A stretch of DNA of 32,000 nucleotides, taken from Methanobacterium bryantii. Lineage in GTDB: Archaea > Methanobacteriota > Methanobacteria > Methanobacteriales > Methanobacteriaceae. The notes beneath the pieces were generated by a model. It was not told the origin of the DNA and ran no database searches. It saw only the letters and a program-made list of their open reading frames with translations. Position numbers and translations under genes: made by a program. Location: the NCBI RefSeq assembly GCF_002287175.1, contig NZ_LMVM01000023.1, forward strand, positions 149,921-181,920, written 5' to 3'. Below are positions 3,949 to 28,313 of the stretch, in pieces (the stretch's first letter is position 1; each line of letters begins with the position of its first letter).

Positions 3949-6096
3949 GTGAGACTATTGAAAAACCTTATTTTTCCATTTTCGGCAATTGTAGGTCAGG
4001 AAAACGTGAAAAAAGCGCTTATACTAAACGCCATAAATCCGGGGATCGGTGGGGTCCTTATCAAAGGAGATAAGGGTACCGGTAAAACTACTGCAGTAAG
4101 GGCGCTTGCAGATCTTTTACCCTCGCTTAAAGTTGTAAAAGGATGCCCATTTAACTGTGATCCTGATGATGAGGAATCTGCATGCAATACATGCAAATCA
4201 GACAATGCAGAAATTGAAGAGAAGAAAATGAGAGTAGTAGAACTTCCACTCGGTTCTACAGAAGACCGCGTAGTTGGATCAATAAACATTGAAAAAGCAT
4301 TAAAAGAAGGTACTCGGGCTTTAGAGCCAGGAATACTGGCAGAAGCCAATAGAAATATACTTTATATTGATGAAATTAACCTTCTTGACGATAATTTAGT
4401 AGATGTCCTGTTAGACGCTGCTGCATATGGAATAAATATTGTAGAAAGGGAGGGGATCTCAGTATCACATCCCTCCAGATTTATACTGGTTGGAACAATG
4501 AACCCTGCTGAAGGTGAGCTCAGACCACAGCTTTCTGATAGAATTGGCCTGCACATCATAGTGCACAGTATCATGGACATAGAAGACCGTGTTGAAATAA
4601 TGGCAAGAAGAGAAGAATTTGAAAGAGATCCCACTGCTTTTAAAAGAAAATTCAGTACATCACAAAAAGAGATACTGGATGATATCTTAAATGCTAGAGC
4701 ATTACTCAAGGATGTTAAAATTTCTCCAGAACTAATGAAAATAATAGCACATGTATGTGTTGACATGGGCGTTGATGGCCACAGGGCAGATATTGCAATA
4801 CTTAAAACATCAAAAACTATTGCTGCTTACAATAAGCATTTAAAAGTTGATTATAATGATGTCGAAGAAGCTGTGATGCTTGTACTTGGAGAAAGACTTC
4901 AAAAATCTTATGATCAAAAAAAGATTAAACAAAAGCTTGAAAAAGCAATTTCAGATACAGAAGATGAACAAAAAGAAGATGAAGATCAAACCCAAGAAGA
5001 GCAAGATAATAGTGAAGGAGATTCTGAAACTGCAGAAAATCAGGACGAAAAAGCCTCTGATGATGAAAATCAATCCCAAGAAGGGCAAAATGAAGATGAT
5101 AGTGGTTTAAAACCTGAAACTGAAGAAAATCAAGAAGAAGTCAATGATGAGGAAGATCAACCCCCTGAAGAGCATGGCAATGTAAACGTTACCCCCCATC
5201 CTACTGAGCAGCCTGAAGATCCTGAAAAAGAAAAAAAAGGAATCATTTTGAAAAGTATTGAAGAAGAAGGAACTCCTGTAGATTCTGATGACGACGAAGT
5301 CGATATTAAAAAGCTCCTTAAAATGAAAGGTAAAAAAAAGAACAGGTTGTATGGAAAACGGGTCGATTCAAAAACTCAAAAAGGGAAGTACATAAAAAGT
5401 AAAATTCCTAAAAATGTTTCAAATGATATAGCAATAGATGCAACTTTAAGGGCAGCTGCCATTAAATCAAACGGCAGCATTAATGTTAAAAATGAACATA
5501 TACGCCACAAGGTTAGAAAACATGGCGCAAAAGCATCAATAGCTCTTGTGGTAGATATAAGCGGATCTATGTTTTCACAAAGGAAAGCAAATAAGATTAA
5601 AGGTATTTTAAATCAATTGATTGAAGATATAAACCACCATAATGATAAAATAAGTGTTATTGGATTTAAAGGTCAGGAAGCTGAAGTTATAATCCCAACA
5701 ACAAGAAGAGCTTCCTCATTTAAAGAACAAGTTGATAATATACGTGTTGGAGGCACCACTCCCCTTGCAGCAGGCCTTAAAAAAGGGTTAGAGCTTCTTA
5801 AAAAGGAAAAATTTAAAGAGGAGTTCGTCCCCATGATGATTGTACTAACAGACGGCATGCCGAATGTAGGCATCAACGACAGGCCTGCAGAAGATGCCCT
5901 GAAAATTGCTGCAGACTTAAAAGAAAATGAGATACATACTATCATTGTTAATTTTGAGAGATCAGTTAAATACGGGCGAGATATGAATATGGAACTTGCA
6001 CTGGCATCTGGCGGCCGTTATTATGATTTAGAAGATATCAAAGACACAAAATGTGTTGTATCACAGATTGTTGAGCAGGAAAGATCCGTTTTATAA
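3949..6096 (+). CDS. AAA+ ATPase (Mg-chelatase ChlI/BchI-like) fused through an acidic linker to a VWA domain (ChlD/BchD-like architecture)
   Basis: Walker A is GDKGTGKT, Walker B is [10 protein letters not shown], and the sensor region is [21 protein letters not shown]-rich linker spans about 4948-5300. The C-terminal VWA domain has the MIDAS motif VVDISGSM and LTDGMPN. The start codon is GTG. Confidence 0.85.
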
Positions 6097-8621: not shown

Positions 8622-9371
8622 TTGATGATGCTAATGAATGTCGAAAATTACATTAGAACTACACTTGAGGATCATAAATTACATTTAACACTTTTAGATC
8701 CAGAAGAGCAGAACCCTGAAGAAGCTGTCAGAATAGCTAAAGAAGCAATTGCAGGAGGCAGTGATGGCATAATGCTCGGCGGATCCACAACAGAGCCTGA
8801 AGAACTCGATGCAACTGCAAAAGCGCTGCGTGAAAATGTCGACGTCCCAGTTATTCTTTTTCCAGGTAATATAAGCGGTGTAAGCAAACATGCAGATGCC
8901 ATATTTTTTATGAGTCTTCTAAATTCAACGAATCCCTACTGGATAATAGGTGCTCAAGCGTTAGCAGCTCCAGGTATTAAAAAAATGGGGATGGAAATCC
9001 TTTCTATGGGTTATCTTGTTGTTGAACCGGGCGGAACTGTTGGATGGGTTGGAGATGCTAAATTAATTCCAAGGAACAAGCCAGATCTGGCAGTAGCATA
9101 TGCAATGGCTGCAGAATTCTTTGGAATGAAATTAATCTATCTTGAAGCTGGTTCTGGAGCTAATGAACATATTCCTGAACAGATGATTGCAGGGGTCAAA
9201 AAAATGACTGACATAATTGTAATTGTAGGTGGAGGAATACGCGACGGAGAAACCGCTGCAAAAATTGCAAAAGCAGGTGCAGATATTGTCGTGACTGGAA
9301 CTGTAGTTGAAAATAGTTCTAATGTTAAAGATAAAATTGAAGAGCTGGTTAGTGGAATTAAATCAGCTTAA
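8622..9371 (+). CDS. Geranylgeranylglyceryl phosphate synthase (PcrB/GGGPS family)
   Basis: Contains LHLTLLDPEEQ, GGSDGIMLGGS, VPVILFPGN, IYLEAGSGA and VGGGIRDGETA, a TIM-barrel GGGPS pattern. The true start is probably one of the ATGs at 8625-8636. Confidence 0.85.
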   Translation: MMMLMNVENYIRTTLEDHKLHLTLLDPEEQNPEEAVRIAKEAIAGGSDGIMLGGSTTEPEELDATAKALRENVDVPVILFPGNISGVSKHADAIFFMSLLNSTNPYWIIGAQALAAPGIKKMGMEILSMGYLVVEPGGTVGWVGDAKLIPRNKPDLAVAYAMAAEFFGMKLIYLEAGSGANEHIPEQMIAGVKKMTDIIVIVGGGIRDGETAAKIAKAGADIVVTGTVVENSSNVKDKIEELVSGIKSA

Positions 9372-11419: not shown

Positions 11420-13006
11420 TCAATCTAATTTTTTTTTATACCTTACCTTCTCTCCATCATGAATACTTTTTTCCTTTATTATTTTGTTAATCTTTTCTAA
11501 GGAAGACTGAGCGGCTAAGCTTGTTTCTTTAACTTCCAGTTCTTTTGCTCTTTTTCTTATATTTTCAAGGGATTCTTTGGCATGTTTTAATATACTATGG
11601 GCAGCTAAAACGCTTAATTCACTCCATACAGCTATTCTTCCAATTTCCCACAAATATTCAGCCACGTCATTTGTATTTTTGCTAAATTCAGATTCTAAAG
11701 CAGCTGTGCCCAAATTAGAGAGATAATTCACTATCCTTATGGTAGTCTTAGGGAGATCATTTCTTGCCGTATATCTTCCCATATTCCCCATGGAATTTAC
11801 TGCACTGGAAACCGACTGCTCCAATTTTTGAGTTATTGCCAACTTCCCAATTCCGTAGATAGTTCCCCCCATCCAAACTGTTTCTTCCAATCCACGTTGA
11901 GCATGTTTAGCTGCATCTATAGCAATAATTCCCAGTGAATTAACCGCTACGCTGGTTGCAAAATCAAGTTCATTTTGAGCAGTCCATCTGCCAATTTCCC
12001 CTATTAAATCAGTTGCCGCTGCTCTTATATCAACCATTTCTCGATTTATAGCCAGTCTAGCAATATTTTTAATGGAATTAACTGCTTCACCCACCACGCT
12101 CTCAATCTTATTTTCCATGGCCGTTTTTCCAATTAAATAGATAGTAATTACTACTTCCATAACAGAATCTTCGTCATCACGGCTTGCTGCTAACTTTCCA
12201 ACCCTTTCCAGATGAGTAAATATGTGCTTTACTACTATACCCTCTTCCCGCTCAAATTTTCCATTTTTAAGTGTAGCCATCATATAATTTTCAAGTACAT
12301 TCAATCCATACCTCATTGTTCCATAATCGTATTTCATCATTGAGCTGTGTATAATATCAATTACAGGTTGAACTGGATCACTTTCAGTGTCAATAACCGG
12401 TCTCATTATATCTGAATAAATGTAAGAATAGCTAATATCATTTGAATCAGCACCAACAATTTTTTCAGATTCTTGAACACCGGCTAAAATGTTTTCATTT
12501 GTTATCCTTTCAGCAAACCTATCTACTACTGTTGAAGACTTCATAATCTCAAGAGACCCTAACAAATAAGGTATTAAAGCACCAAATGCAAAAATACCAA
12601 GAAAATAAGCAACCCAAACACTAATCTCAAAATTTAAAATACCACTTGCATGAATAGCATCTATAGCATTTAAAACTGTTAATCCATAGCCAATGGCAAT
12701 AATATAAATTCCCACAATCAGCCAGATTGATGGAGAATCCTCAAATATATCTATAACCCTAGTTGAATAAGAAGAAGCAGTTAACTGGAGAACAACGAGT
12801 GTTAATGTTATGACTATAGCTATGACGGTGGCTTCACTTTCAACAAGAGTAGACAAAACAAATCTAGTGCTTTCAATAGATTTATAGATGAATGCGGGCG
12901 AGAAATAATACAAAATAAAAGAGGATATCAGTATTAAAGAACCTGAAACCAAGAAATATATTCTTAAACTCCGGGATAATCTAGCTAAGAAGAACAAATT
13001 AAGCAC
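11420..13006 (-). CDS. Multi-pass membrane protein with a C-terminal alpha-helical repeat domain, family not recognised
   Basis: The N-terminal ~160 aa contain several hydrophobic helices. The C-terminal part holds about 8 degenerate ~23-aa repeats of the type IG..A....L......AVNS. The start codon is GTG. Confidence 0.7.
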   Translation of the reverse strand: MLNLFFLARLSRSLRIYFLVSGSLILISSFILYYFSPAFIYKSIESTRFVLSTLVESEATVIAIVITLTLVVLQLTASSYSTRVIDIFEDSPSIWLIVGIYIIAIGYGLTVLNAIDAIHASGILNFEISVWVAYFLGIFAFGALIPYLLGSLEIMKSSTVVDRFAERITNENILAGVQESEKIVGADSNDISYSYIYSDIMRPVIDTESDPVQPVIDIIHSSMMKYDYGTMRYGLNVLENYMMATLKNGKFEREEGIVVKHIFTHLERVGKLAASRDDEDSVMEVVITIYLIGKTAMENKIESVVGEAVNSIKNIARLAINREMVDIRAAATDLIGEIGRWTAQNELDFATSVAVNSLGIIAIDAAKHAQRGLEETVWMGGTIYGIGKLAITQKLEQSVSSAVNSMGNMGRYTARNDLPKTTIRIVNYLSNLGTAALESEFSKNTNDVAEYLWEIGRIAVWSELSVLAAHSILKHAKESLENIRKRAKELEVKETSLAAQSSLEKINKIIKEKSIHDGEKVRYKKKLD

Positions 13007-13249: not shown

Positions 13250-14077
13250 TTAGTCCCTCAAGCCCAATTCAGTTACTTTCTTCTCAACATCAGTCTTGTC
13301 TGGAATAAGGTAATATATTCCATTAACACGCTGGCTTTTCCCAGTAATTATCTCAGTCGGAGCATCATTTATGTCAAAATCCAGAAGAAGTTTTCCAAGC
13401 CTTACTGAGTCATAAATAGGAACATTTGTATGTGTATTTTCACTCAACTGGCTTAAAATAGATGGCAATTTAGGTAAATTAGAAGTTTCTAATGACTCCC
13501 TGATAATTTCTGCAATAATCTTTTGATGTCTCTGCACCCTTCCAATGTCTCCTTTACTGTCCTGTCTAAAACGCGCGTAAAGCAACGTTTGATCTCCATT
13601 AAGTTTATGTACGCCTGCAGGTGCTAATTCCGGCCGGTAATCAGCGATTTGTGGTTCGACATTGACATTAATTCCGCCCAGAGCATCCACAATACTTTTG
13701 AACTCTTCAAAGTCTATCACAACATAATAATCTATATGTACGTTCAAGAAATTTTCTACAGTAGTGGTTGTCAAGTTAATTCCACCATAACCATAGGCAG
13801 CATTGATCTTATCCATACCATGTCCCGGTATATCTACTTTACTATCCCTCGGAATAGAAAGAAGGGAAACTTTCTTTGTCTTCTTATCAATGGAAAGAAT
13901 TGTTATAGAGTCCGTATTACCCGAATAAATTGAATTTTGAGCATCTCTACCCAACAATAATATATTTATCTTACCACCCGTTTGTTGATCTGTAAGTTCA
14001 AATTCAACCAGGATAACTGCAGTAATTGAAACCAATATCAATATTATAACTATAAGAGCTTTTTGCCACCTTTTCAT
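13250..14077 (-). CDS. LytR-CpsA-Psr (LCP) family protein with an N-terminal membrane anchor
   Basis: Contains NILLLGRD, TDSITILSID, SLLSIPRDSKVDIPG, KINAAYGYGG, IDYYVVIDFEEFKSIVDALGGINV and ARFRQDSKGDIGRVQRHQ. Confidence 0.85.
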   Translation of the reverse strand: MKRWQKALIVIILILVSITAVILVEFELTDQQTGGKINILLLGRDAQNSIYSGNTDSITILSIDKKTKKVSLLSIPRDSKVDIPGHGMDKINAAYGYGGINLTTTTVENFLNVHIDYYVVIDFEEFKSIVDALGGINVNVEPQIADYRPELAPAGVHKLNGDQTLLYARFRQDSKGDIGRVQRHQKIIAEIIRESLETSNLPKLPSILSQLSENTHTNVPIYDSVRLGKLLLDFDINDAPTEIITGKSQRVNGIYYLIPDKTDVEKKVTELGLRD

Positions 14078-14204: not shown

Positions 14205-14855
14205 TCATTTTCTACATTTTAAATAATCATTATACTTATTTATGTTTAAAAGTTCCATATCATCACGGGGAGGGACCCCATAAAATATAATACGATTTTT
14301 AACCATTTTTCTCAAAATTGGGTTCAAATTATCTTTATTTCCAGTTAAATATTTTTTTAAAATATCTGTGTGGCATGCAAATGGCATTCCAAGACCTTCT
14401 GCACTATCCAAATATCCTGATTTTCCCCTTGCAAGAATTGAAACCGTATTTTGGGGTTCGGGGCTATTGAATATTTTCATTACAATATTTTTAAAAGTTT
14501 CAGATGATACCGTGGGTTGATCTGCTGCAACACAAAGGCAAAAATCATTTTCAGCCTTTTTAACTCCATTTAAAAGAGATTCCGATAATTCAACATTAAT
14601 TTCATGATTTATGACTATTTTAACTCTTTCATCATCAAATTCATCCAGTACGGATATTATTTCATCACTGAAGTGTCCTAAAACAACGATACATTCGTCG
14701 ACACCAGCATTTAACGTATTTTGAAGTGTTTGTAATATTATTGGATTTCCACGAAAATCAAGGAGAAGTTTATGCCGAATTTCCATTCCACGAGATCTAA
14801 AATCTTCCCTCATTCGCCTATTTTTACCTGCCGCAGTTATAATTGCTGATACCAT
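14205..14855 (-). CDS. MobA-like NTP-transferase-domain nucleotidyltransferase
   Basis: The N-terminus has AIITAAGKNRRM (the LAAGxSxRM-type motif), followed by VVLGH and CVAADQP. Confidence 0.7.
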   Translation of the reverse strand: MVSAIITAAGKNRRMREDFRSRGMEIRHKLLLDFRGNPIILQTLQNTLNAGVDECIVVLGHFSDEIISVLDEFDDERVKIVINHEINVELSESLLNGVKKAENDFCLCVAADQPTVSSETFKNIVMKIFNSPEPQNTVSILARGKSGYLDSAEGLGMPFACHTDILKKYLTGNKDNLNPILRKMVKNRIIFYGVPPRDDMELLNINKYNDYLKCRK

Positions 14856-14966: not shown

Positions 14967-16136
14967 TCAATTAGGAACAAGTTCAATAACCTTAGTATAT
15001 ATGTTCATACTAGTTCCAGACCCTTCAGTCCACATTAATATCTTAATTGGGTAATCCTTAGTATTTGTAACTGTTATACCAGTAGCAGGGTTATAACCTA
15101 ATTTTACAGCATATTCCCCTGACTGCATGCCAACTGGGAGTCCCAATCCGGCATCAAATAGTGCACCTCTCAGCGACCTTGCTGCAGGGCAAACACCATG
15201 AGTTACCCATCCAGCTGAAACAGTTGTATCAGAAACTCTTTCAAATCCTACTGTTTCCTTTCCTGATGAAGTTGTGTGTGGTGGAATTATAGTTCCATTC
15301 CATGCTTCTGCAAACGAATGTGCATTATATGCCCTTTTTGCATTATCATACTCAGCATAATAACCAACTGTATCTGCTCCAGTTCCAATGACTTTTTGGG
15401 TTACAGAACTATTATAAGCAAGTATTGGCAATCCTGCAGGATAATTTTCCATGTAATCTAATACATCACTTCCAAATAAGGATTCAATATTTTCAGGCGT
15501 GACCAAATTCCTTCCATCGTTGAACTTTGAAATTGCATAATCTAAAGTTATACTATCTCCAGTGCTGGCGCTTTCATACCAGTCTTTAAGAGTGTTTACG
15601 CTTACATAATCATGAGGCACAGTACCATTATTGATCTGATCGTAAGGCACTACTTTTACAGTGTTTTTTCCTTCTATTATTTTCAAACCATCATTTGTCT
15701 TAACTCCAAAGGTATAAGAAGTTTTATATCCATAAACAAAATTACCAGGGTAAGTAACAGTCAATTTATTATCTGTAACCGCTAAAATTCCAGGACCACT
15801 GAATCCCTGTGCAACTCCTTCTTTTGATATACCAGTACTTGTAAGCTGATCAGTTGGAGTTTTAACTGTACCCGTAACCACCGCATCTATAACATCTAAA
15901 AATTCCATGTTACTTATATAATACCCTAAGTATTCAGGATGATAAAGTAAAGGAACCTTTCTAATTTTACTATCATCTGTAACCTGAGTTCCGACTATAA
16001 CAGTATCGCCTACACTCAAAGAAGTGATGTCTGTTGGTCCCTGTTGTGGACAGTAAGTTCCCACAATATTTCCAAATGGATACATGGCCAGTGCCAGTAA
16101 AATAAGTACAGCTATGTTAATTTTTGAATTTCCCAA
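14967..16136 (-). CDS. Exported or membrane-anchored protein of unknown function (389 aa) in the Mur-ligase operon
   Basis: The N-terminus (M)GNSKINIAVLILLALAMYPFG looks like a signal anchor. The TTG start overlaps the upstream ligase stop by 20 nt. The protein is beta-rich and rich in G, T, Y and N. Its one conserved-looking Cys block is WVTHGVCPAARSLRGALFDAGLG. Confidence 0.7.
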   Translation of the reverse strand: MGNSKINIAVLILLALAMYPFGNIVGTYCPQQGPTDITSLSVGDTVIVGTQVTDDSKIRKVPLLYHPEYLGYYISNMEFLDVIDAVVTGTVKTPTDQLTSTGISKEGVAQGFSGPGILAVTDNKLTVTYPGNFVYGYKTSYTFGVKTNDGLKIIEGKNTVKVVPYDQINNGTVPHDYVSVNTLKDWYESASTGDSITLDYAISKFNDGRNLVTPENIESLFGSDVLDYMENYPAGLPILAYNSSVTQKVIGTGADTVGYYAEYDNAKRAYNAHSFAEAWNGTIIPPHTTSSGKETVGFERVSDTTVSAGWVTHGVCPAARSLRGALFDAGLGLPVGMQSGEYAVKLGYNPATGITVTNTKDYPIKILMWTEGSGTSMNIYTKVIELVPN

Positions 16137-17658
16137 GTATTTCTGAAGAATATTTAACTCCCCCTTCCCCTATTATCAGAATGATATCCTCTTTTTTCGC
16201 TTCATTTATTGCTAAATTTAAGCTCTCTCCCACCTGTACCTTACTTGCGCCTAAAGTTCCTATTTTAGAGCCCTTTTTGCTAGATTCTGTCAATATAACA
16301 TGGTTATTAACATTAATCTTAGATGAAGCTTTTCTACTAGCATTCGATGCTACTACTATAACATCTGCATCTTTTAATATTTTTGCTATTTCTATATCTC
16401 CCTCAATTCCACTTTCAGAGGATACAGTATTTACAACGATTAATCTTGAGGTTTCTGGTTTTTCTCGGATTAAAGTTTGAATTATTGCTTTAACACCCGC
16501 AGGATTATGGGCATAATCTATTATTACCTGCTTCCCAATATCAACTTTCTGAAATCGGCCTTTTACACCTTCAAAAGTCTCAATACCCTTAACAATATCA
16601 TTAAAATCAATATTAAGCGCTGTAGCTCCGCTTGCTGCGGCAAGGGCATTGTAAACATTGTGAACACCTGCCTGTCTGAGTTTAACTTCTGCAGTATTTG
16701 ATCCTATAACAAGTTTAAAAGAGTCATTCTTTACATCAAATGCTTTAACATCAGGTTCGGGGCGTTTAAATCCACAAGAACATTTATAAACTCCAAGATG
16801 ACCCAAATAATGTAATGAATATTCAAGTTTTTTGCCACATAGAGGGCACTCTCTTATTTCAGGATAAGCTTCTATTTCCAAAGCTATATCCTCAATTCCA
16901 TAAAAAAAGATTTTATGAGATGTATCATTACTAAAACCAGTTACTACAGGGTCATCTGCATTGAAAATTAAACAGTTGGCAACATCTACAATCTCTCTTT
17001 TACAGCTTATATAATCCTGGAAGTTATGGGATCCACTTAAATGATCCTTAGAAATGTTGGTTATAATCCCTATGCTTACCTCAGATTTAAGGGCGCAGTT
17101 TTTAATTTCATTAGGATTTCCATGAGTACCTATCTCTAAAACAGCGACATCTCCCTCAAGTCTTGCCTGAAAAGAAGGTGTTAATTCCGTATTTCCCTGC
17201 ATTTTCAGTTTATGTTCAGGAGTTCTATATCCGCTGAGATTTAATATATTTTTAAGCATCCATGTTGTGGTGGTCTTTCCGTTGGTACCTGTTATTCCAA
17301 CCACAGGTTTACTTACTTTACATGTGCTTAAAATCTCATCCACACTTATTATATCTGCGCCTGTAACGCTCTTTATTTTTCCAATCAATTTGTTATTTTG
17401 AAGTAAACTTGGAGCAACTACAATTACATCTGCATTTTTCAGGATGTTTTCGTCATGTTCTCCAAGATTGAGTTTTATCCCCTCTTCTTCAAGGATATTT
17501 ATCTGCGGACTGTCTGTTGAAAGATCAGATACCGTGACGTCAGCACCGTTATCCTTTAAAACCCTTGCCATTAAACTCCCAACAGTTCCGCAGCCACCGA
17601 TAACTACTGCTTTGAATTCTTGTTCTTTCATAAAAATAAATCCGTTTAGCTGGTTCAC
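16117..17658 (-). CDS. Mur ligase family protein (MurD-like Rossmann N-domain, pseudomurein peptide ligase type) with a Cys4 insert
   Basis: Contains VVIGGCGTVGSLMA, the P-loop GITGTNGKTTT, ITNISKDHL, the insert CPLCGK...YKCSCG, NVYNALAAA, GRFQ and IIDYAHNPAG. The start may instead be the ATG at 17631 (MKEQEF). Confidence 0.85.
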   Translation of the reverse strand: MNQLNGFIFMKEQEFKAVVIGGCGTVGSLMARVLKDNGADVTVSDLSTDSPQINILEEEGIKLNLGEHDENILKNADVIVVAPSLLQNNKLIGKIKSVTGADIISVDEILSTCKVSKPVVGITGTNGKTTTTWMLKNILNLSGYRTPEHKLKMQGNTELTPSFQARLEGDVAVLEIGTHGNPNEIKNCALKSEVSIGIITNISKDHLSGSHNFQDYISCKREIVDVANCLIFNADDPVVTGFSNDTSHKIFFYGIEDIALEIEAYPEIRECPLCGKKLEYSLHYLGHLGVYKCSCGFKRPEPDVKAFDVKNDSFKLVIGSNTAEVKLRQAGVHNVYNALAAASGATALNIDFNDIVKGIETFEGVKGRFQKVDIGKQVIIDYAHNPAGVKAIIQTLIREKPETSRLIVVNTVSSESGIEGDIEIAKILKDADVIVVASNASRKASSKINVNNHVILTESSKKGSKIGTLGASKVQVGESLNLAINEAKKEDIILIIGEGGVKYSSEILGKFKN

Positions 17659-17664
17659 TGAAAT

Positions 17665-20454
17665 TCAAGTTTTATCTTTATACTCTTTAATACCTTTATA
17701 TATCTCTGATTTTACATTGTCATATGCATTAACGACACCGGGGCCTATATGAATTATTGTATCTCCCTCTTTTGCAATTTCCAATGCTGTAGATATTGAA
17801 TCGGCAATATTAATTGTTTGGTATGTTTCTATACCATCAGCTCCATCCACTACTGTCTCCGCTGCTTCAGGATCTATTACTTCCGTAGTTTCATTTTTTG
17901 CGCTTGCAATAACCACATCAGCATACTTTCCAAGCACAGTACCCATTTTAAATTTATCACGAACTGTAAGTGTATCCGGATTATCTACTGATATTATAAG
18001 CTTTCCTTCAAGAGTTAAACCATCTAAAAGACGTTCTACAGCTTCAGGATTGTGGGCTGCATCCATGAATATGTTTACACCGCTAATTAAGTCAATTTTC
18101 TCAAATCTTCCAGCTACTCCTGAAAAGCTTTCCATTTTATCTTTAATATAGTCTAAATCAAAATCTAAAACCATATCTACAATAAAAGCAGCCATTGCAT
18201 TTTCTATATTGCATGCACCTGGTGATTTAAGATTTATTCTCATATTACATGGATCTCTATACTTCCTTTCAAAGTTACCACAGTTACAGTATACTTTACC
18301 ACAGTTTTTACAAACCACTGTGGGAATAGTTCCAGTTTTAATGGTAAATTCGGAACCATAAAGGCCTTTAAGCTCAACATCTTCTGCTAATATATCAAAG
18401 TCTATATTATTTTTATGATGATAAGTTTTACCTTCACATACAACTGTCCGGGGTTCATTAAAACCATAATATATGACTTCTTTATCAAATTTAGGGGCCA
18501 ATATACTTATGATTGGATCATCACCATTTGCAATTAAAATCCCGTTTTTATGGAGTAAATCTTTTATAGCCACATTTCTCTCCACGTATTCTTCATATGT
18601 ATTAAATTCATCCATATGATCTGGAGTAAGATTAGTTAAAACCCCTGCACAAATTTCAAGCCCGTCTAACATCCTTATAGTACCATGAGGAAGTTCAAAA
18701 ACTGCGAAATCTTTATTTCCAGTTCCGTTTTCGACTATAAAGTCAACTAAACCTTCAATAACAAGCGAGTTCTGCAGGGATGAGAAAAGTAATGTTTCAT
18801 ATCTATCAGATAATGTATAATTTGTCATGTTGGTGGTTGTGGTTTTACCATCTGTTCCTGCAATACCAATCATAGGGATCTTTATAATAGAATTTATCAT
18901 CTTTCCAATGTCCCTTGTACCAATTTCCATGATCTCGTAGTTCTCTTCACACTCATTAATAAATTGTCGAATTTCAGAATTTTTAGGGACATTTGGAGAA
19001 ACAAAAACAACATCCGCCCACATTGCATGTTCATTTACATGCGATCCAAGTTCTACAGCTATTCCTTTTTCTTTAAGCTCTTCAATTCTCCTTCTGGCTT
19101 TTTTTGGCAGCTGTTCAAATTCCTTAATATCCGAAATAATAACCTCATTGCCAAGGTAGTTTAAAAGATGTGCTGCAGGCCTTCCCGCGTTTCCTGCGCC
19201 TATTATCAGTACTTTTTTGCCCCTAATCACTGTATCATCCTTTGTTAATCTCCGTAGTGTTTCCTGTATTTCTATAAGTTTAGTTTGGCCATTTCCACCT
19301 ATAAATATATTTTTACATTTGTCACTGCACTCCACTGCAAAGTTAACAACGTCGGCTGTATCTTTCATTATTTTAACAGTCCCATTATAACCTTCATTTT
19401 TTAACTTTTCCAATGCAATATCAGTTGTATTGTCTAGTCCTGGAAATAAAACTATAGTTTCTGGATTAACTTTGACTACTTCCTTTAAAATTTCATATCT
19501 ACATGTTTCATTCTTTCGGGGCGTACCAATTATAACAACGTCAAATTTTAACTCATTAAGCACTGCTGCAGTTGCATCAACATTATCTGTTTTTCCAACC
19601 ACAAAATTACATCCAGATAAATTCAGAGTTTCTGATCTTCCATTAACGCCTTTAAATTCACTTAATGTATCATCAATATCGCTTTGTGGAATCTCTAAAA
19701 ATTGTGCAACTTTTTCTGCGGCAGCAGCATTTTGAAGGTTAAATTTACCGAACATTTTAAGATCTCTGTATCCATTTCCAAAAAAGAACGTTTCACTAGG
19801 ATAGTCTTTAATTCCAGATAAAAATTCATCTTGTCCATTTAATATAGCCGTTTTCCCTTTTAAGAATCTGCCTAACGAGTTTCTATAATTCTCAAGAGAA
19901 TTATGGAAATCCATGTGATCATGCCCTATGTTTGTTACAACTATCAGGTCAAAATCAAAGGCATAAGAACAAAAATCAAGAGTCATATCACAAACTTCAA
20001 CTATTAAAATGTCACATTTTTGTTTAGAAGTTTCCAGTATGAGTTTTGTGTATCCTCCAAATCCGCCACCAGCATTTCCACCTAGGAGTACATTAAAACC
20101 TGCTTTTTCAAGTATTTCCTTAATCATAAAGCAAGTAGTTGTTTTGCCATTGGTTCCTGTTACTCCTATTGTGAAAATAGATTTATGATCCGCCAGAATG
20201 TCTGATAAAGACTTCTTACGAGATCTTATTTTTTCGCCGATCTTACTACTCCACAAGCTTGGACTTAAAACTACTGCATCTGCAGAATTTATTTTATCAA
20301 AATCATGATATCCAAGATCAAGATCTATAGCAGAATTATGTTTTAATTCCACATTTTTTTGCATATCAGAAGCATAAACTTTATATCCATAATTAATAAG
20401 GGATTTTACAGCATTTTTACCTTCTGTTCCCAATCCGACCACTGCAACTTTCAT
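17665..20454 (-). CDS. Tandem fusion of two complete Mur-ligase modules (929 aa)
   Basis: Module 1 has MKVAVVGLGTEG, GVTGTNGKTTT (about 20134-20166), VTNIGHDHMD, GKFNLQNAAAA and FKGVNGRSE. Module 2 starts near aa 415 with KVLIIGAGNAGRPAA, then GIAGTDGKTTTT (about 18832-18867), LTNLTPDHMD, CKNCGKVYCNCG, CNIENAMAA, GRFEKI and DAAHNPEA. Confidence 0.85.
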   Translation of the reverse strand: MKVAVVGLGTEGKNAVKSLINYGYKVYASDMQKNVELKHNSAIDLDLGYHDFDKINSADAVVLSPSLWSSKIGEKIRSRKKSLSDILADHKSIFTIGVTGTNGKTTTCFMIKEILEKAGFNVLLGGNAGGGFGGYTKLILETSKQKCDILIVEVCDMTLDFCSYAFDFDLIVVTNIGHDHMDFHNSLENYRNSLGRFLKGKTAILNGQDEFLSGIKDYPSETFFFGNGYRDLKMFGKFNLQNAAAAEKVAQFLEIPQSDIDDTLSEFKGVNGRSETLNLSGCNFVVGKTDNVDATAAVLNELKFDVVIIGTPRKNETCRYEILKEVVKVNPETIVLFPGLDNTTDIALEKLKNEGYNGTVKIMKDTADVVNFAVECSDKCKNIFIGGNGQTKLIEIQETLRRLTKDDTVIRGKKVLIIGAGNAGRPAAHLLNYLGNEVIISDIKEFEQLPKKARRRIEELKEKGIAVELGSHVNEHAMWADVVFVSPNVPKNSEIRQFINECEENYEIMEIGTRDIGKMINSIIKIPMIGIAGTDGKTTTTNMTNYTLSDRYETLLFSSLQNSLVIEGLVDFIVENGTGNKDFAVFELPHGTIRMLDGLEICAGVLTNLTPDHMDEFNTYEEYVERNVAIKDLLHKNGILIANGDDPIISILAPKFDKEVIYYGFNEPRTVVCEGKTYHHKNNIDFDILAEDVELKGLYGSEFTIKTGTIPTVVCKNCGKVYCNCGNFERKYRDPCNMRINLKSPGACNIENAMAAFIVDMVLDFDLDYIKDKMESFSGVAGRFEKIDLISGVNIFMDAAHNPEAVERLLDGLTLEGKLIISVDNPDTLTVRDKFKMGTVLGKYADVVIASAKNETTEVIDPEAAETVVDGADGIETYQTINIADSISTALEIAKEGDTIIHIGPGVVNAYDNVKSEIYKGIKEYKDKT

Positions 20455-21155
20455 ATTACCTACCGATATTTATAATCCTAAAGGTTATTATGACTATCTA
20501 AAAATGGCTTCTAAAATAATTTAAATAATATAGATATTTAATTGTAACGCTTGAATTTCTCCGAGCTCTGTGAATCGAAAACAGCCGATCCCGTAAATTC
20601 ATAAATAAGTATCCATTCTTATTATTAAACCCTAATTTATCTATAGAAAGCCATAAGATCATTTTCAATATTAGTTACCTCAAACAGCCATATTTACTTT
20701 TTCGTATTAATTTTTTTGTTATTTGTAATAATAAATTTTTTGATAATTCTATTATTCAAGTAATTTGATCTATACAAACTAGAATAATCAATTTGTATTT
20801 ATTACAATCATATATAAATGATTTTTAATTAATATCATTTGATAAATATATCGTAAATATAAAATCAATGAAATGAAACTACTATCTCCTAACATAAATA
20901 ATTTCAAATAATTAAAGCATTTTATTTCGCTAAATACTCCCAGAATTCCTATTAAAATTCAATAAAAATAATAAATCAGCAATTATATAACAATGTATTA
21001 ACAATATATGAAATAAACTAACTTGTTTATTTAAAGTCATTACTTAATAAATATCCTTAAGCTTATCTGTTAATCCAAGGATTTTAATGATAAATAATTA
21101 TAACAAAAAAAATGATTTGATACAATCAACAACGAAAACATATCAAGGTGACATC

Positions 21156-22205
21156 ATGAAAAATCTATCCAAAGAAATAGTAGAACGCATTGAAAACATT
21201 TCAAGGCCAGTTAAAATAATGCACGTATGTGGCTCCCATGAACATACCATAATGCAGCATGGAATAAGATCATTGATTCCAAAAGAAGTAGAAATAGTAG
21301 CAGGTCCCGGGTGTCCTGTTTGTTGTGTACCTTCAATAGAAGTTGATGAATGCCTGTATCTTGCACGAAAAGGCGTTACCATTACAACATTTGGAGATAT
21401 GCTGAGGGTTCCTGGAACAACAGGGACACTTGCAGATGCAAAAGCTGAAGGTGCTGATGTAAGAATAGTTTATGGAATAAATAATGCGGTTGAAATTGCA
21501 GAAAAGATTGATAACGATGTCGTATTTATGGCAGCCGGTTTTGAAACTACTGCACCTACCACTGCAGCAGAAATAGTCGCGGGGCTTCCGAAAAACCTTT
21601 CAATTTTATCCTGTCACAGATTAATACCCCCAGCACTCAAATTTTTAATTGAATCAGGAGAAGTAAACTTAAATGCACTTATAGAGCCGGGACATGTTTC
21701 AACAATAATAGGAACAGAACCTTATGAAGAATTTTCCAAAAAATATGGCATTCCTCAAGTTGTAGCAGGATTTAATCCACTTGATGTCCTGATTGCAATT
21801 TATATGATATTAAAACAGATGGATGAGGGCAAAGCTGTAGTTCAAAATGAATACAAACGAGCTGTTAGAGAAGAAGGAAATATAAAAGCTCAAGAGCTTA
21901 TGGATGAAGTTTTCTATATTAAAGATAAAGAATGGAGAGGTTTCCCAGAAATTCCTGACTCTACATATGAAATAAAGGATGAATTTGCAGATTCCAACGC
22001 AAGGGAAAGATTCGATATCAAAGTAGAGCAGGGTGAAAAAGTCCCAACTGGTTGCATATGCGGCCCAATTCTGCGGGGAATTGCAAGACCAGAGCAGTGC
22101 AAGCTTTTCAGGAAAGAATGCAATCCTATGAACCCAATTGGCGCATGTATGGTCAGTAAAGAAGGAACATGCAACATAGCATTTAGATATGGATCAGGAT
22201 TATAA
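21156..22205 (+). CDS. hypD: [NiFe]-hydrogenase maturation protein HypD
   Basis: Contains MHVCGSHEHT, GPGCPVCV, FMAAGFETTAP, GHVSTI and a C-terminal CxC...C region. The track ORF opens at 21087, but the ATG at 21156 (MKNLSKE) is preceded by AGGTGA and fits the usual HypD N-terminus. Confidence 0.9.
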   Translation: MKNLSKEIVERIENISRPVKIMHVCGSHEHTIMQHGIRSLIPKEVEIVAGPGCPVCCVPSIEVDECLYLARKGVTITTFGDMLRVPGTTGTLADAKAEGADVRIVYGINNAVEIAEKIDNDVVFMAAGFETTAPTTAAEIVAGLPKNLSILSCHRLIPPALKFLIESGEVNLNALIEPGHVSTIIGTEPYEEFSKKYGIPQVVAGFNPLDVLIAIYMILKQMDEGKAVVQNEYKRAVREEGNIKAQELMDEVFYIKDKEWRGFPEIPDSTYEIKDEFADSNARERFDIKVEQGEKVPTGCICGPILRGIARPEQCKLFRKECNPMNPIGACMVSKEGTCNIAFRYGSGL

Positions 22206-22991: not shown

Positions 22992-24293
22992 ATGATAAAT
23001 ACTGCAGAACGCGCGTTAAATCTTGCTTTAAAAGATTCTGATTATGCAGAAGTGTATATAGAAAGAGAAAAAAGTATTGATGTAGACATCCAGAGAAATG
23101 AAATTAGTTTTGCAAAAGAAGAAATTACCTACGGATTAAGTGTAAGAGTAATTTTAAGAGGAAAAATGGGATTTTCTTATACAACTAATATTGATAAAAT
23201 TGATGAAACCGCGAAGAATGCAATATTCAACGCGAAATCTAATATTGAAGATGAATATTTTGATTTTGCCCATGAATCCAAATACAGCCAAGTTAAAGGT
23301 ACTTATGATAAAAAAAATGAAGCAATGGATATCGAAAGTTCCATAGATTTTGCAAAAACTATGATAGACACCGTTGAAGAAGAAAAATGTGGACCAACCT
23401 CAGGAGGATTTTCTGCAGGAAAAACAGAGAGCGTAATCTTAAATTCGAATGGTGTAAACCGTGAAGAAATAGGAACATCATTTTCAGGGTTTATAGCAGT
23501 AAATGCTGAAAAAGATGGAGAAATATCAACAGCATACGAAGGGGACTCGTCAAGGCTCTTTGATATTAACCCTGAATGGATTGCAGATAATGCATGCGAT
23601 ATTGCAAAAAATTCTTTAAACGGCAAACCTGTAGAAACAAAAGATATGGACGTAATATTAGATTACCGTGCATCTGCAGGTCTTCTTGGAACATTTGTGG
23701 GTGCTTTTAATGCAGATAATGTTCAAAGAGGCAGGTCTGTTTTTGCAGATAAAATAGGAAATGAAGTTGTTTCGCCTTCATTAAGCATTTATGATGACGG
23801 TACACTTGAAGGAGGACTTGCTTCATCAATAAGTGATGGAGAAGGAACCCCTACTCAAAAAACTGCCGTAATTCAGGACGGAATCCTAAAAAGTTTCATT
23901 TATGACATATATACATCTAAAAAAGGAAATACAGAAAGTACGGGTAACGGTATGAGGTCTTCCTTTGCAGATATGCCTTCAGTGGGCTTAAGTAATTTTG
24001 TTCTTGAATTTAAAGATACCCTTGAAATAGAAGATATTAAAGAAGGAATACTTGTTACAGATGTTTTAGGTGCACATACAGCCAACCCAATTTCAGGAGA
24101 CTTTTCAGTTGAGGCCAACAATGCATTTAAAATAGAAAATGGAGAAATTAGTTACCCTGTTAAAAAAGCCATGTTATCTGGAAACATATTTGACGTTATG
24201 AAAAATGCAGCAAGTGGTTCTAAAGAAATCAGACAACGAGGACCTTTCGTTATTCCACGTATTTTAGCTCCGAATTTAAGAGTAGTAGGCTAA
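22992..24293 (+). CDS. TldD/PmbA family metallopeptidase-like protein
   Basis: The length (433 aa) and several blocks fit PmbA/TldD: SVRVILRGKMGFSYT, DDGTLEGGLASSISDGEGTPTQKT, GNGMRSSF, VTDVLGAHTANPISGDFSVEA and ISYPVK. Confidence 0.8.
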   Translation: MINTAERALNLALKDSDYAEVYIEREKSIDVDIQRNEISFAKEEITYGLSVRVILRGKMGFSYTTNIDKIDETAKNAIFNAKSNIEDEYFDFAHESKYSQVKGTYDKKNEAMDIESSIDFAKTMIDTVEEEKCGPTSGGFSAGKTESVILNSNGVNREEIGTSFSGFIAVNAEKDGEISTAYEGDSSRLFDINPEWIADNACDIAKNSLNGKPVETKDMDVILDYRASAGLLGTFVGAFNADNVQRGRSVFADKIGNEVVSPSLSIYDDGTLEGGLASSISDGEGTPTQKTAVIQDGILKSFIYDIYTSKKGNTESTGNGMRSSFADMPSVGLSNFVLEFKDTLEIEDIKEGILVTDVLGAHTANPISGDFSVEANNAFKIENGEISYPVKKAMLSGNIFDVMKNAASGSKEIRQRGPFVIPRILAPNLRVVG

Positions 24294-26804: not shown

Positions 26805-28313
26805 TTGGGCATTGGAGGCGTTATAATTAAGAAAAAACTGCCTTTTGCAGTTCTACTAATACTTGGCTTATTCCTGGCAAGTATAGCTGGCGCGAGCGCG
26901 GCAGATGTAGGCACTGCACAATCACAGGCTGTTAATAACAGCACTGTGCAAGAAAATGCTGGAATACACACAAATGATACATACAATGAAAACGAATCGG
27001 TTGCAACGCAAAATTCAACCGATGAAAATATAACGGAGGGTACGAGTACTGCAACCTCAAATACCAGTACCAATCAAACCACCGTTAAAACAGAACCCGT
27101 TGCACAAGATATAGCAAATACAAGTGCTGATCAAACTGCAACAACTCTCACAGTGACTTCAACAAACTCCACCAGCAAAAATTCAACAGTTTCAGAAACT
27201 AACACAAAAAACGCAGTTTCAACTGCATTAAACAACAGTCAAAATTCAACAAGCACAAAAACTAACACATGGAATAATACAACCAGTACTCAAACTCAAA
27301 GTACTGGGTATGATACTATCAAAAATAATGATAGTTATCAAAAAGCAGCTGCAGGAGAAACGAAAGTTACCTCCAAAAGCTTTACTGCAAAGCAAATCAA
27401 TAATGCAGCGGCAAAAGTTAAGGCATACGTTGAAACCAACCACAGACTTCCAAACTATGTGACAATTGGTACAATCCAAGTGCAAATGTCTGATTTCCTG
27501 AAACTATTAACTGCAAATATACTGCAGTTATACAATAAGAAAACAAGTTCAATAACACTAAAAAGTATAAACAGTGCAGCAAAACCTAGCGAAAGTGTTA
27601 AAAGCGGTACTATGACCAAATCATGTTATTTAGACCTTGCTAAAAGAGTGAATGTATTTATAAATACAAATGGTGCTTTACCAAATTATGCAACAAGCAG
27701 TCTTGGCAAACTGAATTATAAATCATTAATTTACACGTTTTCCAAGGTACTTGCCTTCTACAATACAAATAGTAGATTGCCAAATTACGTTACTGTTAAA
27801 CCATGGAGTAAAGTTGGAACTTCAGATACATCAAATTCATCAACACCAGTACCTGCATCATTACAGCAGTATCTTAAATCTACTACAAACTGTCAGGTAA
27901 ACAACGCACAAATTCAAGCACTGGCAAAATCAATAACAAGCGGTAAATCATCCACATATGCTAAAGCAGCAGCAATATTTAACTGGGTACGAGATAACAT
28001 AGGCTATTCATTCTACTACAATACCAAATATGGCGCAGTTGGAACATTATCTTCAAAAACAGCCAATTGTGTCGATACATCCCACTTGTTAATAGCACTT
28101 GAAAGGGCCGCAGGAATTCCTGCACGATACGAGCATGTTTATGCTAAATTCTCAAGTGGCACATGGTATGGGCATGTTATTGCTCAGGTTTGGGTTAATG
28201 GTAAATGGTACTATGCAGATGCAAGTAGCTCCAGAAATACATTTGGTGTTATAAATAACTGGAATACAACAACAGCAACAGTATACGGTACATATACATC
28301 CATATCTTTCTAA
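26805..28313 (+). CDS. Secreted pseudomurein-binding-repeat protein with a C-terminal transglutaminase-like (Cys-His-Asp) domain, copy 1
   Basis: The signal peptide is KKKLPFAVLLILGLFLASIAGASA. A long S/T/N-rich linker follows. There are three repeats of the type [42 protein letters not shown] and FYNTNSRLPNYVTV. The core is NCVDTSH (Cys 28068-28070), GHVIAQV (His 28173-28175) and YADAS (Asp 28218-28220). Confidence 0.85.
   Translation: MGIGGVIIKKKLPFAVLLILGLFLASIAGASAADVGTAQSQAVNNSTVQENAGIHTNDTYNENESVATQNSTDENITEGTSTATSNTSTNQTTVKTEPVAQDIANTSADQTATTLTVTSTNSTSKNSTVSETNTKNAVSTALNNSQNSTSTKTNTWNNTTSTQTQSTGYDTIKNNDSYQKAAAGETKVTSKSFTAKQINNAAAKVKAYVETNHRLPNYVTIGTIQVQMSDFLKLLTANILQLYNKKTSSITLKSINSAAKPSESVKSGTMTKSCYLDLAKRVNVFINTNGALPNYATSSLGKLNYKSLIYTFSKVLAFYNTNSRLPNYVTVKPWSKVGTSDTSNSSTPVPASLQQYLKSTTNCQVNNAQIQALAKSITSGKSSTYAKAAAIFNWVRDNIGYSFYYNTKYGAVGTLSSKTANCVDTSHLLIALERAAGIPARYEHVYAKFSSGTWYGHVIAQVWVNGKWYYADASSSRNTFGVINNWNTTTATVYGTYTSISF

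Follow-up and report, generated by a model that had tools for sequence, protein, structure and literature searches.

The last ~125 residues of PmurA, an Mfer335-family protein encoded in the window (the whole 32,000-nucleotide stretch of DNA that was analysed), are a strongly diverged VanW-type domain, a remote homology that we recognise by comparing sequence profiles. Among the bacterial enzymes that act as L,D-transpeptidases on peptidoglycan, the second family has the VanW fold. VanW domains are Cys-dependent L,D-transpeptidases and carboxypeptidases in which the Cys is essential for transpeptidation, and biochemical activity has been demonstrated for the bacterial proteins Ldt4 and Ldt5 of C. 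difficile only (PMC11348318). For PmurA itself, we consider the chances about even that it works outside the cytoplasm on the stem peptides of pseudomurein, as a Cys-dependent transpeptidase or peptidase.

The PmurA open reading frame (14967..16136, minus strand) encodes 389 aa from a TTG start to a stop codon at 14967-14969. The initial annotation could name no family for the protein. However, NCBIfam model NF053640 ‘Mfer335 family protein PmurA’ matches it over its full length (E = 2e-164; 547 bits, cutoff 400), residues 11-388 covering model positions 1-378 of 378, and PmurA has already been described in the literature as part of pseudomurein gene cluster 1. The Pfam search of PmurA returned nothing significant, its sole weak match being VanW (E = 0.09). 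As first noted, the TTG start overlaps the end of the upstream ligase frame by 20 nt, the two frames sharing 16117-16136. No Shine-Dalgarno-like sequence lies 5-10 nt from the TTG, and the nearest purine-rich run, GGGGAAGGGGGAG, is >20 nt upstream, so that the exact start and translational coupling can only be inferred.

Profile-profile comparison carries the homology. In hhalign, the PmurA C-terminal domain (approximately residues 263-389; 14970..15350, minus strand) aligned with a 102-sequence VanW-domain alignment over 120 columns with a probability of 93.7%, P = 1.9e-7 and a score of 47.3, placing Cys on Cys and bearing out a VanW resemblance that had at first been noted as an impression only. 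Shuffle, reversal and wrong-domain controls scored 12-22 compared with this 47.3; across 300 column shuffles the score was 12.6 ± 2.7 and reached at most 22.1, and the reversed profile gave 12.6. The probability rose from 52.7% with 22 VanW sequences to its final value with 102, and these diverse alignments supersede our earliest comparison, made with a narrow VanW-B-only alignment (27 columns, E = 0.07). Since AF2-derived secondary structure entered hhalign with an SS score of 0.0, its agreement was counted separately: between independent AF2 models, 97 of 123 aligned columns (79%) agree without any helix/strand clash, compared with 34 ± 7% under circular shifts. Among the 15 aligned VanW columns that are conserved to at least 90%, nine hold the same residue in PmurA, and the conserved positions that are matched comprise R268/N271, P286, GG...G314-x-C316, P334-x-G336, N358 and P363. 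C316 aligns with the VanW catalytic Cys (C in 99/102) and G314 with the invariant VanW G, the PmurA context GG-xxSH-G-V-C-P facing GGGxCQ at the N-terminus of a helix. In the AF2 model Cys316 opens helix 316-328, just as Cys128 of VanW-B stands at the start of helix 127-139. PmurA resembles the VanW L,D-transpeptidases (PF04294; Ldt4/Ldt5; VanW-B of the vanB cluster) in the order of its secondary-structure elements and in its Cys, which follows G-x and begins the central helix, and has the R..N helix, the P-x-G motif and the Asn of ‘kfkN’ in common with them.

At this distance, comparing an HMM with sequences is not sensitive enough. The Pfam VanW model (PF04294) reached 12.7 bits on PmurA against a gathering cutoff of 27 (E = 0.091, residues 268-300 only), other HMM-to-sequence comparisons gave at most 15.8 bits, and a profile HMM search of 1.84e9 proteins recovered the PmurA family alone and reached no bacterial VanW. 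VanW was the only recurrent weak Pfam match, with E < 1 in 8 of 29 family members and a best value of 0.018. Foldseek with the PmurA AF2 model (pLDDT 90.8) returned nothing under E = 0.05 from the PDB and BFVD, a result that is uninformative about VanW because a sequence search found no VanW structure in the PDB and a genuine VanW-B model also matches nothing. A profile search of PDB sequences with PmurA gave chance-level matches only.

The putative active-site segment, (A/G)G-WVTH-GVCPAARSLR at residues 308-323 (15168..15215, minus strand), stands out by its conservation; residues 310-332 read WVTHGVCPAARSLRGALFDAGLG. H313 (codon 15198-15200, minus strand), G314, C316 (codon 15189-15191, minus strand; gca on the plus strand, TGC in the gene), P317 and R320 are each present in 131/131 homologues and R323 in 130/131, and the H-G-x-C-P-x-x-R-x-L-R segment is kept down to 27% overall identity. 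The conservation of both His and Cys, on which the initial annotation had made its proposal of an enzyme depend, is therefore found throughout these homologues. Its description of a single conserved-looking Cys stands as regards C316, invariant in all 131; PmurA contains two Cys in total, though, and the other, C29, is variable (Y/I/V/F elsewhere).

The canonical VanW triad is absent from PmurA, because its His is deleted and its Asp position is variable. The VanW catalytic His (102/102 in the alignment; erxxH, about 23 residues past the Cys) falls in a PmurA gap, an earlier alignment having paired it with the variable S339, and the Asp (GxDAT, 92/102) falls on variable position 338 (S/T/N/R/Q), after the conserved P-x-G. 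His313, invariant and three residues ahead of the Cys, lies within a four-residue insertion that PmurA has relative to VanW GGGxC, so that the ‘His-Gly...Cys spacing logic’ suggested at the outset is not that of the VanW triad. PmurA further departs from VanW proteins in scoring under the Pfam threshold, in having CP..R.LR where they have CQ.S..LY, in having no PG_binding_4 or G5 domains but an N-terminal ectodomain that is unrelated and some 235 residues long, and in being archaeal and tied to pseudomurein. Its substrate bond cannot be the L,D bond between meso-DAP and D-Ala, since the stem peptides of pseudomurein are built from L-amino acids alone and feature gamma and epsilon bonds.

The other folds proposed for comparison, YkuD, sortase and NlpC/P60, received no support from Pfam or Foldseek. 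A YkuD reading was rejected on three grounds: Pfam YkuD matched neither PmurA nor any of 29 homologues, Foldseek found no YkuD match in the PDB, where many YkuD structures are present, and the spacing differs from the signature phi-G-phi-HG(S/T)-X10-(S/T)XGC-phi-R(M/L). PmurA would share with YkuD enzymes, many of which are membrane-anchored, a Cys acyl-enzyme chemistry on wall stem peptides, but its HGVCPxxR is only loosely and superficially similar to the YkuD HG and G-C-phi-R elements (PMC12729407), from which it differs in spacing and context. The YkuD and VanW folds are not superimposable (PMC11348318).

Between anchor and VanW-like domain lies a middle ectodomain region (residues 27-262; 15351..16058, minus strand) that AF2 models as beta-rich plus alpha/beta, with pLDDT mostly 83-96. 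It carries an F[NS]DGR motif, with D207 and R209 invariant and G193 in 129/131 homologues. No Pfam or PDB match and no recognisable family was found for it, and hhalign gave no similarity to the PG_binding_4 regions of long VanW proteins (P = 0.38) and P = 0.07-0.22 against the VanW domain.

The N-terminus is best read as a membrane anchor or signal peptide for an exported ectodomain. Residues 1-26 (16059..16136, minus strand), of which AF2 models 4-26 as a helix, contain an uncharged hydrophobic segment at residues 8-22 (16071-16115, minus strand) following a basic N-terminus (K5). Across 40 family members the segment comprises 15-25 uncharged residues, with a mean Kyte-Doolittle value of 2.86 over the best 15-residue window and a net charge of +2.0 before and -1.3 after it, which is a positive-inside bias. 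A basic N-terminus and hydrophobic segment are in frame in 80/80 related loci, and some of these loci offer no start codon downstream of the segment that would retain conserved residues. These features agree with the signal-anchor claimed in the initial annotation, and the predicted topology is N-in, C-out. Ldt4 and Ldt5 are described as having an N-terminal membrane anchor and an extracytoplasmic catalytic domain (PMC11348318), an arrangement that PmurA would share. For its own gene models, PMC11915815 predicted the orthologous group to have no signal peptide and 0 TM. PmurA gene models cut to 372 aa conceal the membrane anchor, which is a gene-model problem. A point against an extracytoplasmic role is that the genes neighbouring PmurA act in the cytoplasm.

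In its distribution PmurA follows pseudomurein, a co-occurrence that had been put forward as a check and is borne out almost entirely by Methanobacteriales-type genomes. The profile search of 1.84 billion representative proteins yielded 59 PmurA matches, and the genome scan found 219 loci; among the best 80 of these 219, 79 were labelled Methanobacteriales-type and one (L046) Methanomicrobiales, the latter probably owing to mis-binning. The 172 word-indexed homologues all came from Methanobacterium-like sources. Among the most divergent family representatives, one is found on contigs of 62% GC and is probably Methanopyrus-like. This agrees with the report that the Mfer335 family is limited to pseudomurein methanogens and invariably lies in cluster 1 (PMC10117817). 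The gene order in the window is pMurD2/D1, pMurC, PmurA, PmurB, all on the minus strand. The cluster is headed by a fused pMurD2-pMurD1-like ligase frame of 929 aa (17665..20454), which matches NF053647 with 672 bits over residues 1-400 and NF053646 with 440 bits over residues 414-925, the latter under its cutoff of 610. The pseudomurein peptide ligase pMurC (16117..17658; NF053645, 600 bits, cutoff 560) follows, its stop lying 17 nt inside the PmurA frame, and PmurB, an Mfer334-family MobA-like nucleotidyltransferase, is encoded downstream of PmurA (14205..14855; NF053639, 336 bits, cutoff 260). Among related loci PmurB lies directly downstream on the same strand in 76/76, a Mur-type ligase frame on that strand stops a short way upstream in 70/75, and PmurA is a single-copy, universally conserved gene of the core biosynthetic cluster. 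Like VanW, it is thus encoded alongside cell-wall precursor genes. In the bacterial dcw cluster, FtsI/PBP3 is a membrane-anchored extracytoplasmic transpeptidase encoded among mur ligase genes. The place of PmurA in a Mur-ligase operon parallels this in gene organisation only, FtsI having a serine penicillin-binding fold and an unrelated sequence. An LCP-type polymer transferase gene adjoins the cluster in the window, as such a neighbour does in 4/80 loci. Two genes for exported transglutaminase-like proteins with PMBR repeats lie 10-15 kb off in the window.

As an extracytoplasmic enzyme, PmurA would be bitopic: its short, basic N-terminus would lie in the cytoplasm, and a single hydrophobic helix would connect it to an ectodomain of some 360 residues. 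Cys316 would attack the exported stem peptide of pseudomurein at one of its peptide bonds, most likely the Lys-Ala bond that bears the terminal alanine, to form a thioacyl-enzyme. An amino group on a neighbouring stem could then accept the acyl group, resulting in cross-linking, or water could, resulting in carboxypeptidase trimming. His313 might take over the role of general base from the lost VanW His, which is conjecture, and the invariant Arg320 and Arg323, both on the Cys helix, may bind the free alpha-carboxylates that gamma- and epsilon-linked peptides of pseudomurein typically have. More specifically, and only tentatively, since we rate it as possible rather than probable, PmurA could be the sought pseudomurein cross-linking transpeptidase, an archaeal offshoot of VanW that kept the Cys, relocated the His to a new insertion and acts on all-L, gamma/epsilon-linked stem peptides.

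A VanW-like Cys enzyme outside the membrane need not be the cross-linker, and PmurA may instead be a carboxypeptidase or endopeptidase of stem peptides, or attach a protein or secondary polymer to pseudomurein, while PMBR-transglutaminase-like proteins cross-link; we regard this as rather unlikely. It would be in keeping with the carboxypeptidase activity of the VanW proteins Ldt4 and Ldt5 and with VanW proteins lacking LDT activity (PMC11348318, PMC12729407). LDTs can carry out many kinds of acyl transfer (PMC12729407), and some LD-transpeptidases attach lipoproteins. Exported transglutaminase-like proteins are, moreover, the current candidates in the literature (PMC11915815), and the window holds the two with PMBR repeats mentioned above. 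Such proteins and PeiW/PeiP would have in common with PmurA that they are exported Cys-dependent enzymes acting on pseudomurein peptides, but they possess a papain/transglutaminase-like fold (Transglut_core, Peptidase_C71) and PMBR repeats, none of which PmurA matches. Their genes are multi-copy and lie outside the core cluster, whereas a single-copy, universally conserved cluster gene such as PmurA would be expected for an indispensable step more than for an accessory one. The adjoining LCP-type transferase would fit a role in polymer attachment, but its rarity among the loci speaks against this. Somewhat less likely again, PmurA could be VanW-like but non-catalytic, and link the making of precursors in the cytoplasm to export and assembly as a membrane-anchored scaffold, substrate-binding factor or regulator. 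Both the catalytic His and Asp of VanW are absent, actinobacterial VanW homologues even carry Ser for Cys, and LDT activity is lacking in some VanW homologues (PMC11348318). However, the invariance of Cys316 and its surrounding motif in all 131 homologues, however distant, has the appearance of an active-site signature. The nucleophile is usually lost in pseudo-enzymes.

The current guess for PmurA is a different one, namely that it is a cytoplasmic ATP-dependent phosphotransferase, a glutamate kinase producing the first precursor of pseudomurein. Mfer335 is one possible phosphoryl-transfer enzyme in Subedi et al. (PMC10117817), recombinant PMurA is reported to break down ATP, and a glutamate kinase has been proposed with mention of an ‘NTPase domain’ (PMC12996149); the position of the gene among those for cytoplasmic steps would fit. 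Nevertheless, we consider this reading very improbable. The expected Glu-phosphate product was not detected, and the Pfam column for PMurA is blank in Table S1 of the same study (PMC12996149). Neither PmurA nor 29 homologues matched a kinase, NTPase or P-loop family in Pfam/NCBIfam, and sequence and fold searches found no PDB relative of PmurA. The conserved N-terminal hydrophobic anchor with its positive-inside bias would place the bulk of the protein outside, and the only homology detected is with a domain of wall enzymes that work outside the cytoplasm.

An experimentally identified pseudomurein cross-linking enzyme is lacking in the literature, in which only transglutaminases are postulated for this step and these archaea are stated to have no homologue of murein cross-linking enzymes (PMC10117817, PMC11915815). 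Of the genes invariably present in the core cluster, two are unexplained, one of them PmurA/Mfer335, and the link of PmurA to VanW makes it a testable candidate for a pseudomurein cross-linking or trimming enzyme. As a methanogen-specific protein that may be surface-exposed, it is a possible drug target with relevance to rumen methane mitigation. The link also bears on the debate about common ancestry versus gene transfer in the murein and pseudomurein pathways. If PmurA is the cross-linker, this would contradict the view that archaea have no counterpart to murein cross-linking enzymes, and the shared ancestry of murein and pseudomurein would extend past the cytoplasmic Mur ligases and MraY to extracellular cross-linking.

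The gene at 14967..16136 on the minus strand, which encodes 389 aa from a TTG start, had been assigned to no nameable family in the initial annotation. However, the protein matches NCBIfam NF053640 ("Mfer335 family protein PmurA") end to end with 547 bits at a cutoff of 400; the family is already catalogued and not new. The closest relative of the window, which has 34% G+C, is Methanobacterium sp. MBAC-LM, with 93% protein identity in this gene. According to Subedi et al. 2021 (PMC10117817), Mfer335 is a constant component of pseudomurein gene cluster 1, occurs in no organisms other than pseudomurein methanogens, has an N-terminal membrane-insertion segment and may play a role in phosphoryl transfer. 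The name PMurA was introduced in a 2026 paper together with the guess that the protein is a glutamate kinase (PMC12996149). In the literature searched, we found neither the placement of its C-terminal domain (residues 263-389) in the VanW transpeptidase superfamily, as made here, nor any paper connecting VanW with pseudomurein.

A 2024 study established VanW domains as a second L,D-transpeptidase family acting on peptidoglycan. They have a Cys-His-Asp triad whose Cys is essential to transpeptidation, and no solved or similar structure was known (PMC11348318). VanW was the only Pfam family to match PmurA, and the match stayed below threshold (12.7 bits, E = 0.091, residues 268-300). For profile-profile comparison with hhalign, VanW alignments were built from VanW-B of the vanB cluster, 14 diverse plasmid-borne VanW proteins and 80 metagenomic VanW domains. 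The narrow profile based on VanW-B only aligned with PmurA over 27 columns (E = 0.07). With 22 diverse VanW sequences, the C-terminal domain was matched with a probability of 52.7% (P = 1.4e-4, score 31.3), and with 102 sequences with 93.7% (P = 1.9e-7, score 47.3) over 120 columns, which span the whole domain. Such a climb of the score with profile diversity is expected of true homology. In comparison, 300 column-shuffled VanW profiles scored 12.6 ± 2.7 (maximum 22.1; Gumbel-fit P ~3e-8) and the reversed profile 12.6; the N-terminal region of PmurA reached 17.5 against VanW (P = 0.07) and its C-terminal domain 10.7 against PG_binding_4 regions. Independent AF2 models of PmurA (pLDDT 90.8) and VanW-B (pLDDT 77.7), with secondary structure kept out of the alignment, agreed in secondary structure in 97 of 123 aligned columns, and nowhere was a helix paired with a strand; a circular-shift null gave 34 ± 7% agreement (maximum 49%). 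The resemblance to VanW noted in the initial annotation is real, and homology of the two domains is highly probable.

Both domains have in common an R..N pair in their first helix (in PmurA, R268 and N271), a proline past the first strand (P286), glycines ahead of the nucleophile, and P363. PmurA Cys316 (codon 15189-15191), located in the block WVTHGVCPAARSLRGALFDAGLG (residues 310-332), aligns with the catalytic Cys of VanW (C in 99 of 102 sequences), both where the central helix begins. P334-x-G336 falls on the P-x-G-(r)-D of VanW and N358 on the invariant Asn of its "kfkN" motif. In contrast, the invariant VanW His (102/102) lies in a segment missing from PmurA, the VanW Asp (92/102) pairs with a variable position, and CQxS..LY of VanW corresponds to CPxxRxLR. 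Among 131 full-length PmurA members, D207, R209, R268, N271, W279, H313, G314, C316, P317, R320, P334, G336 and N358 are invariant, and R323, G330 and G372 occur in 130; the core motif is (S/T/A)-H-G-(V/A)-C-P-(P/A)-(A/G)-R-x-L-R. Cys316 is indeed the single conserved cysteine, as C29 varies. The His-Gly...Cys spacing had been likened to Cys-dependent transpeptidases. The canonical VanW triad is not reproduced, and His313 belongs to four inserted residues (x-A-S-H) that separate the GG of VanW from its G-x-C. PmurA is best regarded as a new and divergent lineage within the VanW superfamily, with a putative active site that is rearranged. Three actinobacterial plasmid VanW homologues (L013, L014 and L015) have Ser where the catalytic Cys would be (GGGISQ, GGGVSA) and keep the His; they may be serine-nucleophile or inactive variants.

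Foldseek searches with the PmurA model returned no match in PDB or BFVD. This result is neutral with regard to VanW, since a sequence search of the PDB found no VanW domain and the VanW-B model was likewise without a match. As the PDB is rich in YkuD, sortase, NlpC/P60 and transglutaminase folds, it does argue against these four, the first three of which had been proposed for comparison. The stretch of about 235 residues that separates the VanW-like domain from the anchor matched no known family, PG_binding_4 included.

In all of the best 80 of 219 loci, Lys/Arg and then an uncharged hydrophobic segment are encoded in frame upstream of the conserved ectodomain, in line with the signal-anchor N-terminus noted initially. 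In 40 members the segment comprises 15-25 residues (mean 18), with a Kyte-Doolittle mean of 2.86 in the best 15-residue window and net charges of +2.0 ahead of it and -1.3 beyond; residues 4-26 form a helix in the AF2 model. These features predict an N-in, C-out orientation by a signal anchor or a Sec-type signal peptide, and an extracytoplasmic location is likely. An A-L-A motif at residues 15-17 is not conserved in the family. Many public gene models (P0002-P0051 and others) comprise 372 aa and begin at a first Met within the hydrophobic segment (Met18 in PmurA, window 16083-16085), so that the anchor is lost. Gene models of this kind may, and probably do, explain why the PmurA orthologous group OG0001147 was reported as uncharacterised, without signal peptide or TM segment (Lupo et al. 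2025, PMC11915815). Several homologues have ATG or TTG at the aligned start codon and others begin a few codons upstream; some clades have no alternative downstream start that spares the conserved residues. No Shine-Dalgarno-like sequence lies 5-10 nt from the PmurA TTG.

A word-indexed search yielded 172 homologues, all Methanobacterium-like, and among 1.84 billion representative proteins a profile search matched 59, of which about a dozen are full-length and none comes from outside the family. Scanning 185,579 species genomes, we found 219 PmurA loci; 79 of the best 80 carry Methanobacteriales-type labels. The remaining one (L046, "Methanomicrobiales archaeon") is probably a mis-binned or mislabelled MAG, since the distribution is otherwise strictly Methanobacteriales. 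P0135, at 27% identity the most divergent member and possibly from a Methanopyrus-like source, is encoded on contigs with 62% G+C, and its gene (4001-5179 in L176/L177) lacks ligase neighbours and is flanked by TP_methylase and radical-SAM MoaA-like genes. Among the best 80 loci, PmurB immediately follows PmurA on the same strand in all 76 with enough sequence; on its other side, the end of a Mur-type ligase gene lies close upstream in 70 of 75.

In the window, this ligase is pMurC (16117..17658, minus; NF053645, 600 bits), whose reading frame overlaps that of PmurA by 20 nt; the ORF, overlap, motif and Cys codon had all been placed correctly. Further upstream, a fused ligase ORF (17665-20454, minus, 929 aa) joins a pMurD2-type half (residues 1-400; NF053647, 672 bits) to a pMurD1-like half (residues 414-925; NF053646, 440 bits, under the cutoff of 610). 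Fused or overlapping ligase annotations are known from some pseudomurein cluster types (PMC10117817). Just downstream of PmurB lies a LytR-CpsA-Psr (LCP) family gene (13250-14077, minus; PF03816, E = 6e-44), which adjoins the cluster in only 4 of the best 80 loci and hence does not belong to its core. In Gram-positive bacteria, LCP enzymes link secondary polymers to peptidoglycan. A DUF2254 membrane protein (11420-13006, minus, 528 aa), with a long, helical-repeat-like C-terminal half, has homologues after PmurB in 14 of these 80 loci. Two plus-strand genes (26805-28313 and 29360-30757) encode proteins with PMBR and Transglut_core/Peptidase_C71 (Pei-like) matches, the class favoured in the literature for pseudomurein cross-linking or remodelling. 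Housekeeping context, all plus strand, is provided by a Mg-chelatase-like AAA+/VWA protein (3949-6096), a PcrB-family (GGGP synthase-type) protein (8622-9371), HypD (21087-22205) and a PmbA/TldD peptidase (22992-24293).

PmurA has an invariant Cys/His/Arg cluster, a conserved operon position and a domain homologous to that of Cys-dependent wall transpeptidases, and is probably a catalytic Cys enzyme. The exported stem precursor is Glu-gamma-Ala-epsilon-Lys-Ala with gamma-Glu on Lys (PMC10117817). Cys316 could attack this peptide to form a thioacyl intermediate, from which the acyl group would pass to an amino group of a neighbouring stem (cross-link) or to water (trimming). In the scheme of Kandler and König, the terminal Ala is reportedly released on cross-linking. 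A role as transpeptidase or peptidase on pseudomurein stems outside the membrane has about an even chance, while the assignment to cross-linking specifically is tentative.

In a rival reading, transglutaminase-like proteins, two of which are encoded in the window, would be the true cross-linkers and PmurA a trimming or attachment enzyme. That PmurA is a pseudo-enzyme or scaffold is unlikely given its invariant active-site-like motif. The published view of a cytoplasmic glutamate kinase draws on observed ATP breakdown, but the expected product was not detected (PMC12996149); the membrane anchor and the failure to detect a nucleotide-binding family in PmurA also argue against it. Overall, the observation in the initial annotation is confirmed and its interpretation partly supported, and the VanW assignment of the PmurA C-terminal domain makes the role of this protein directly accessible to experiment.
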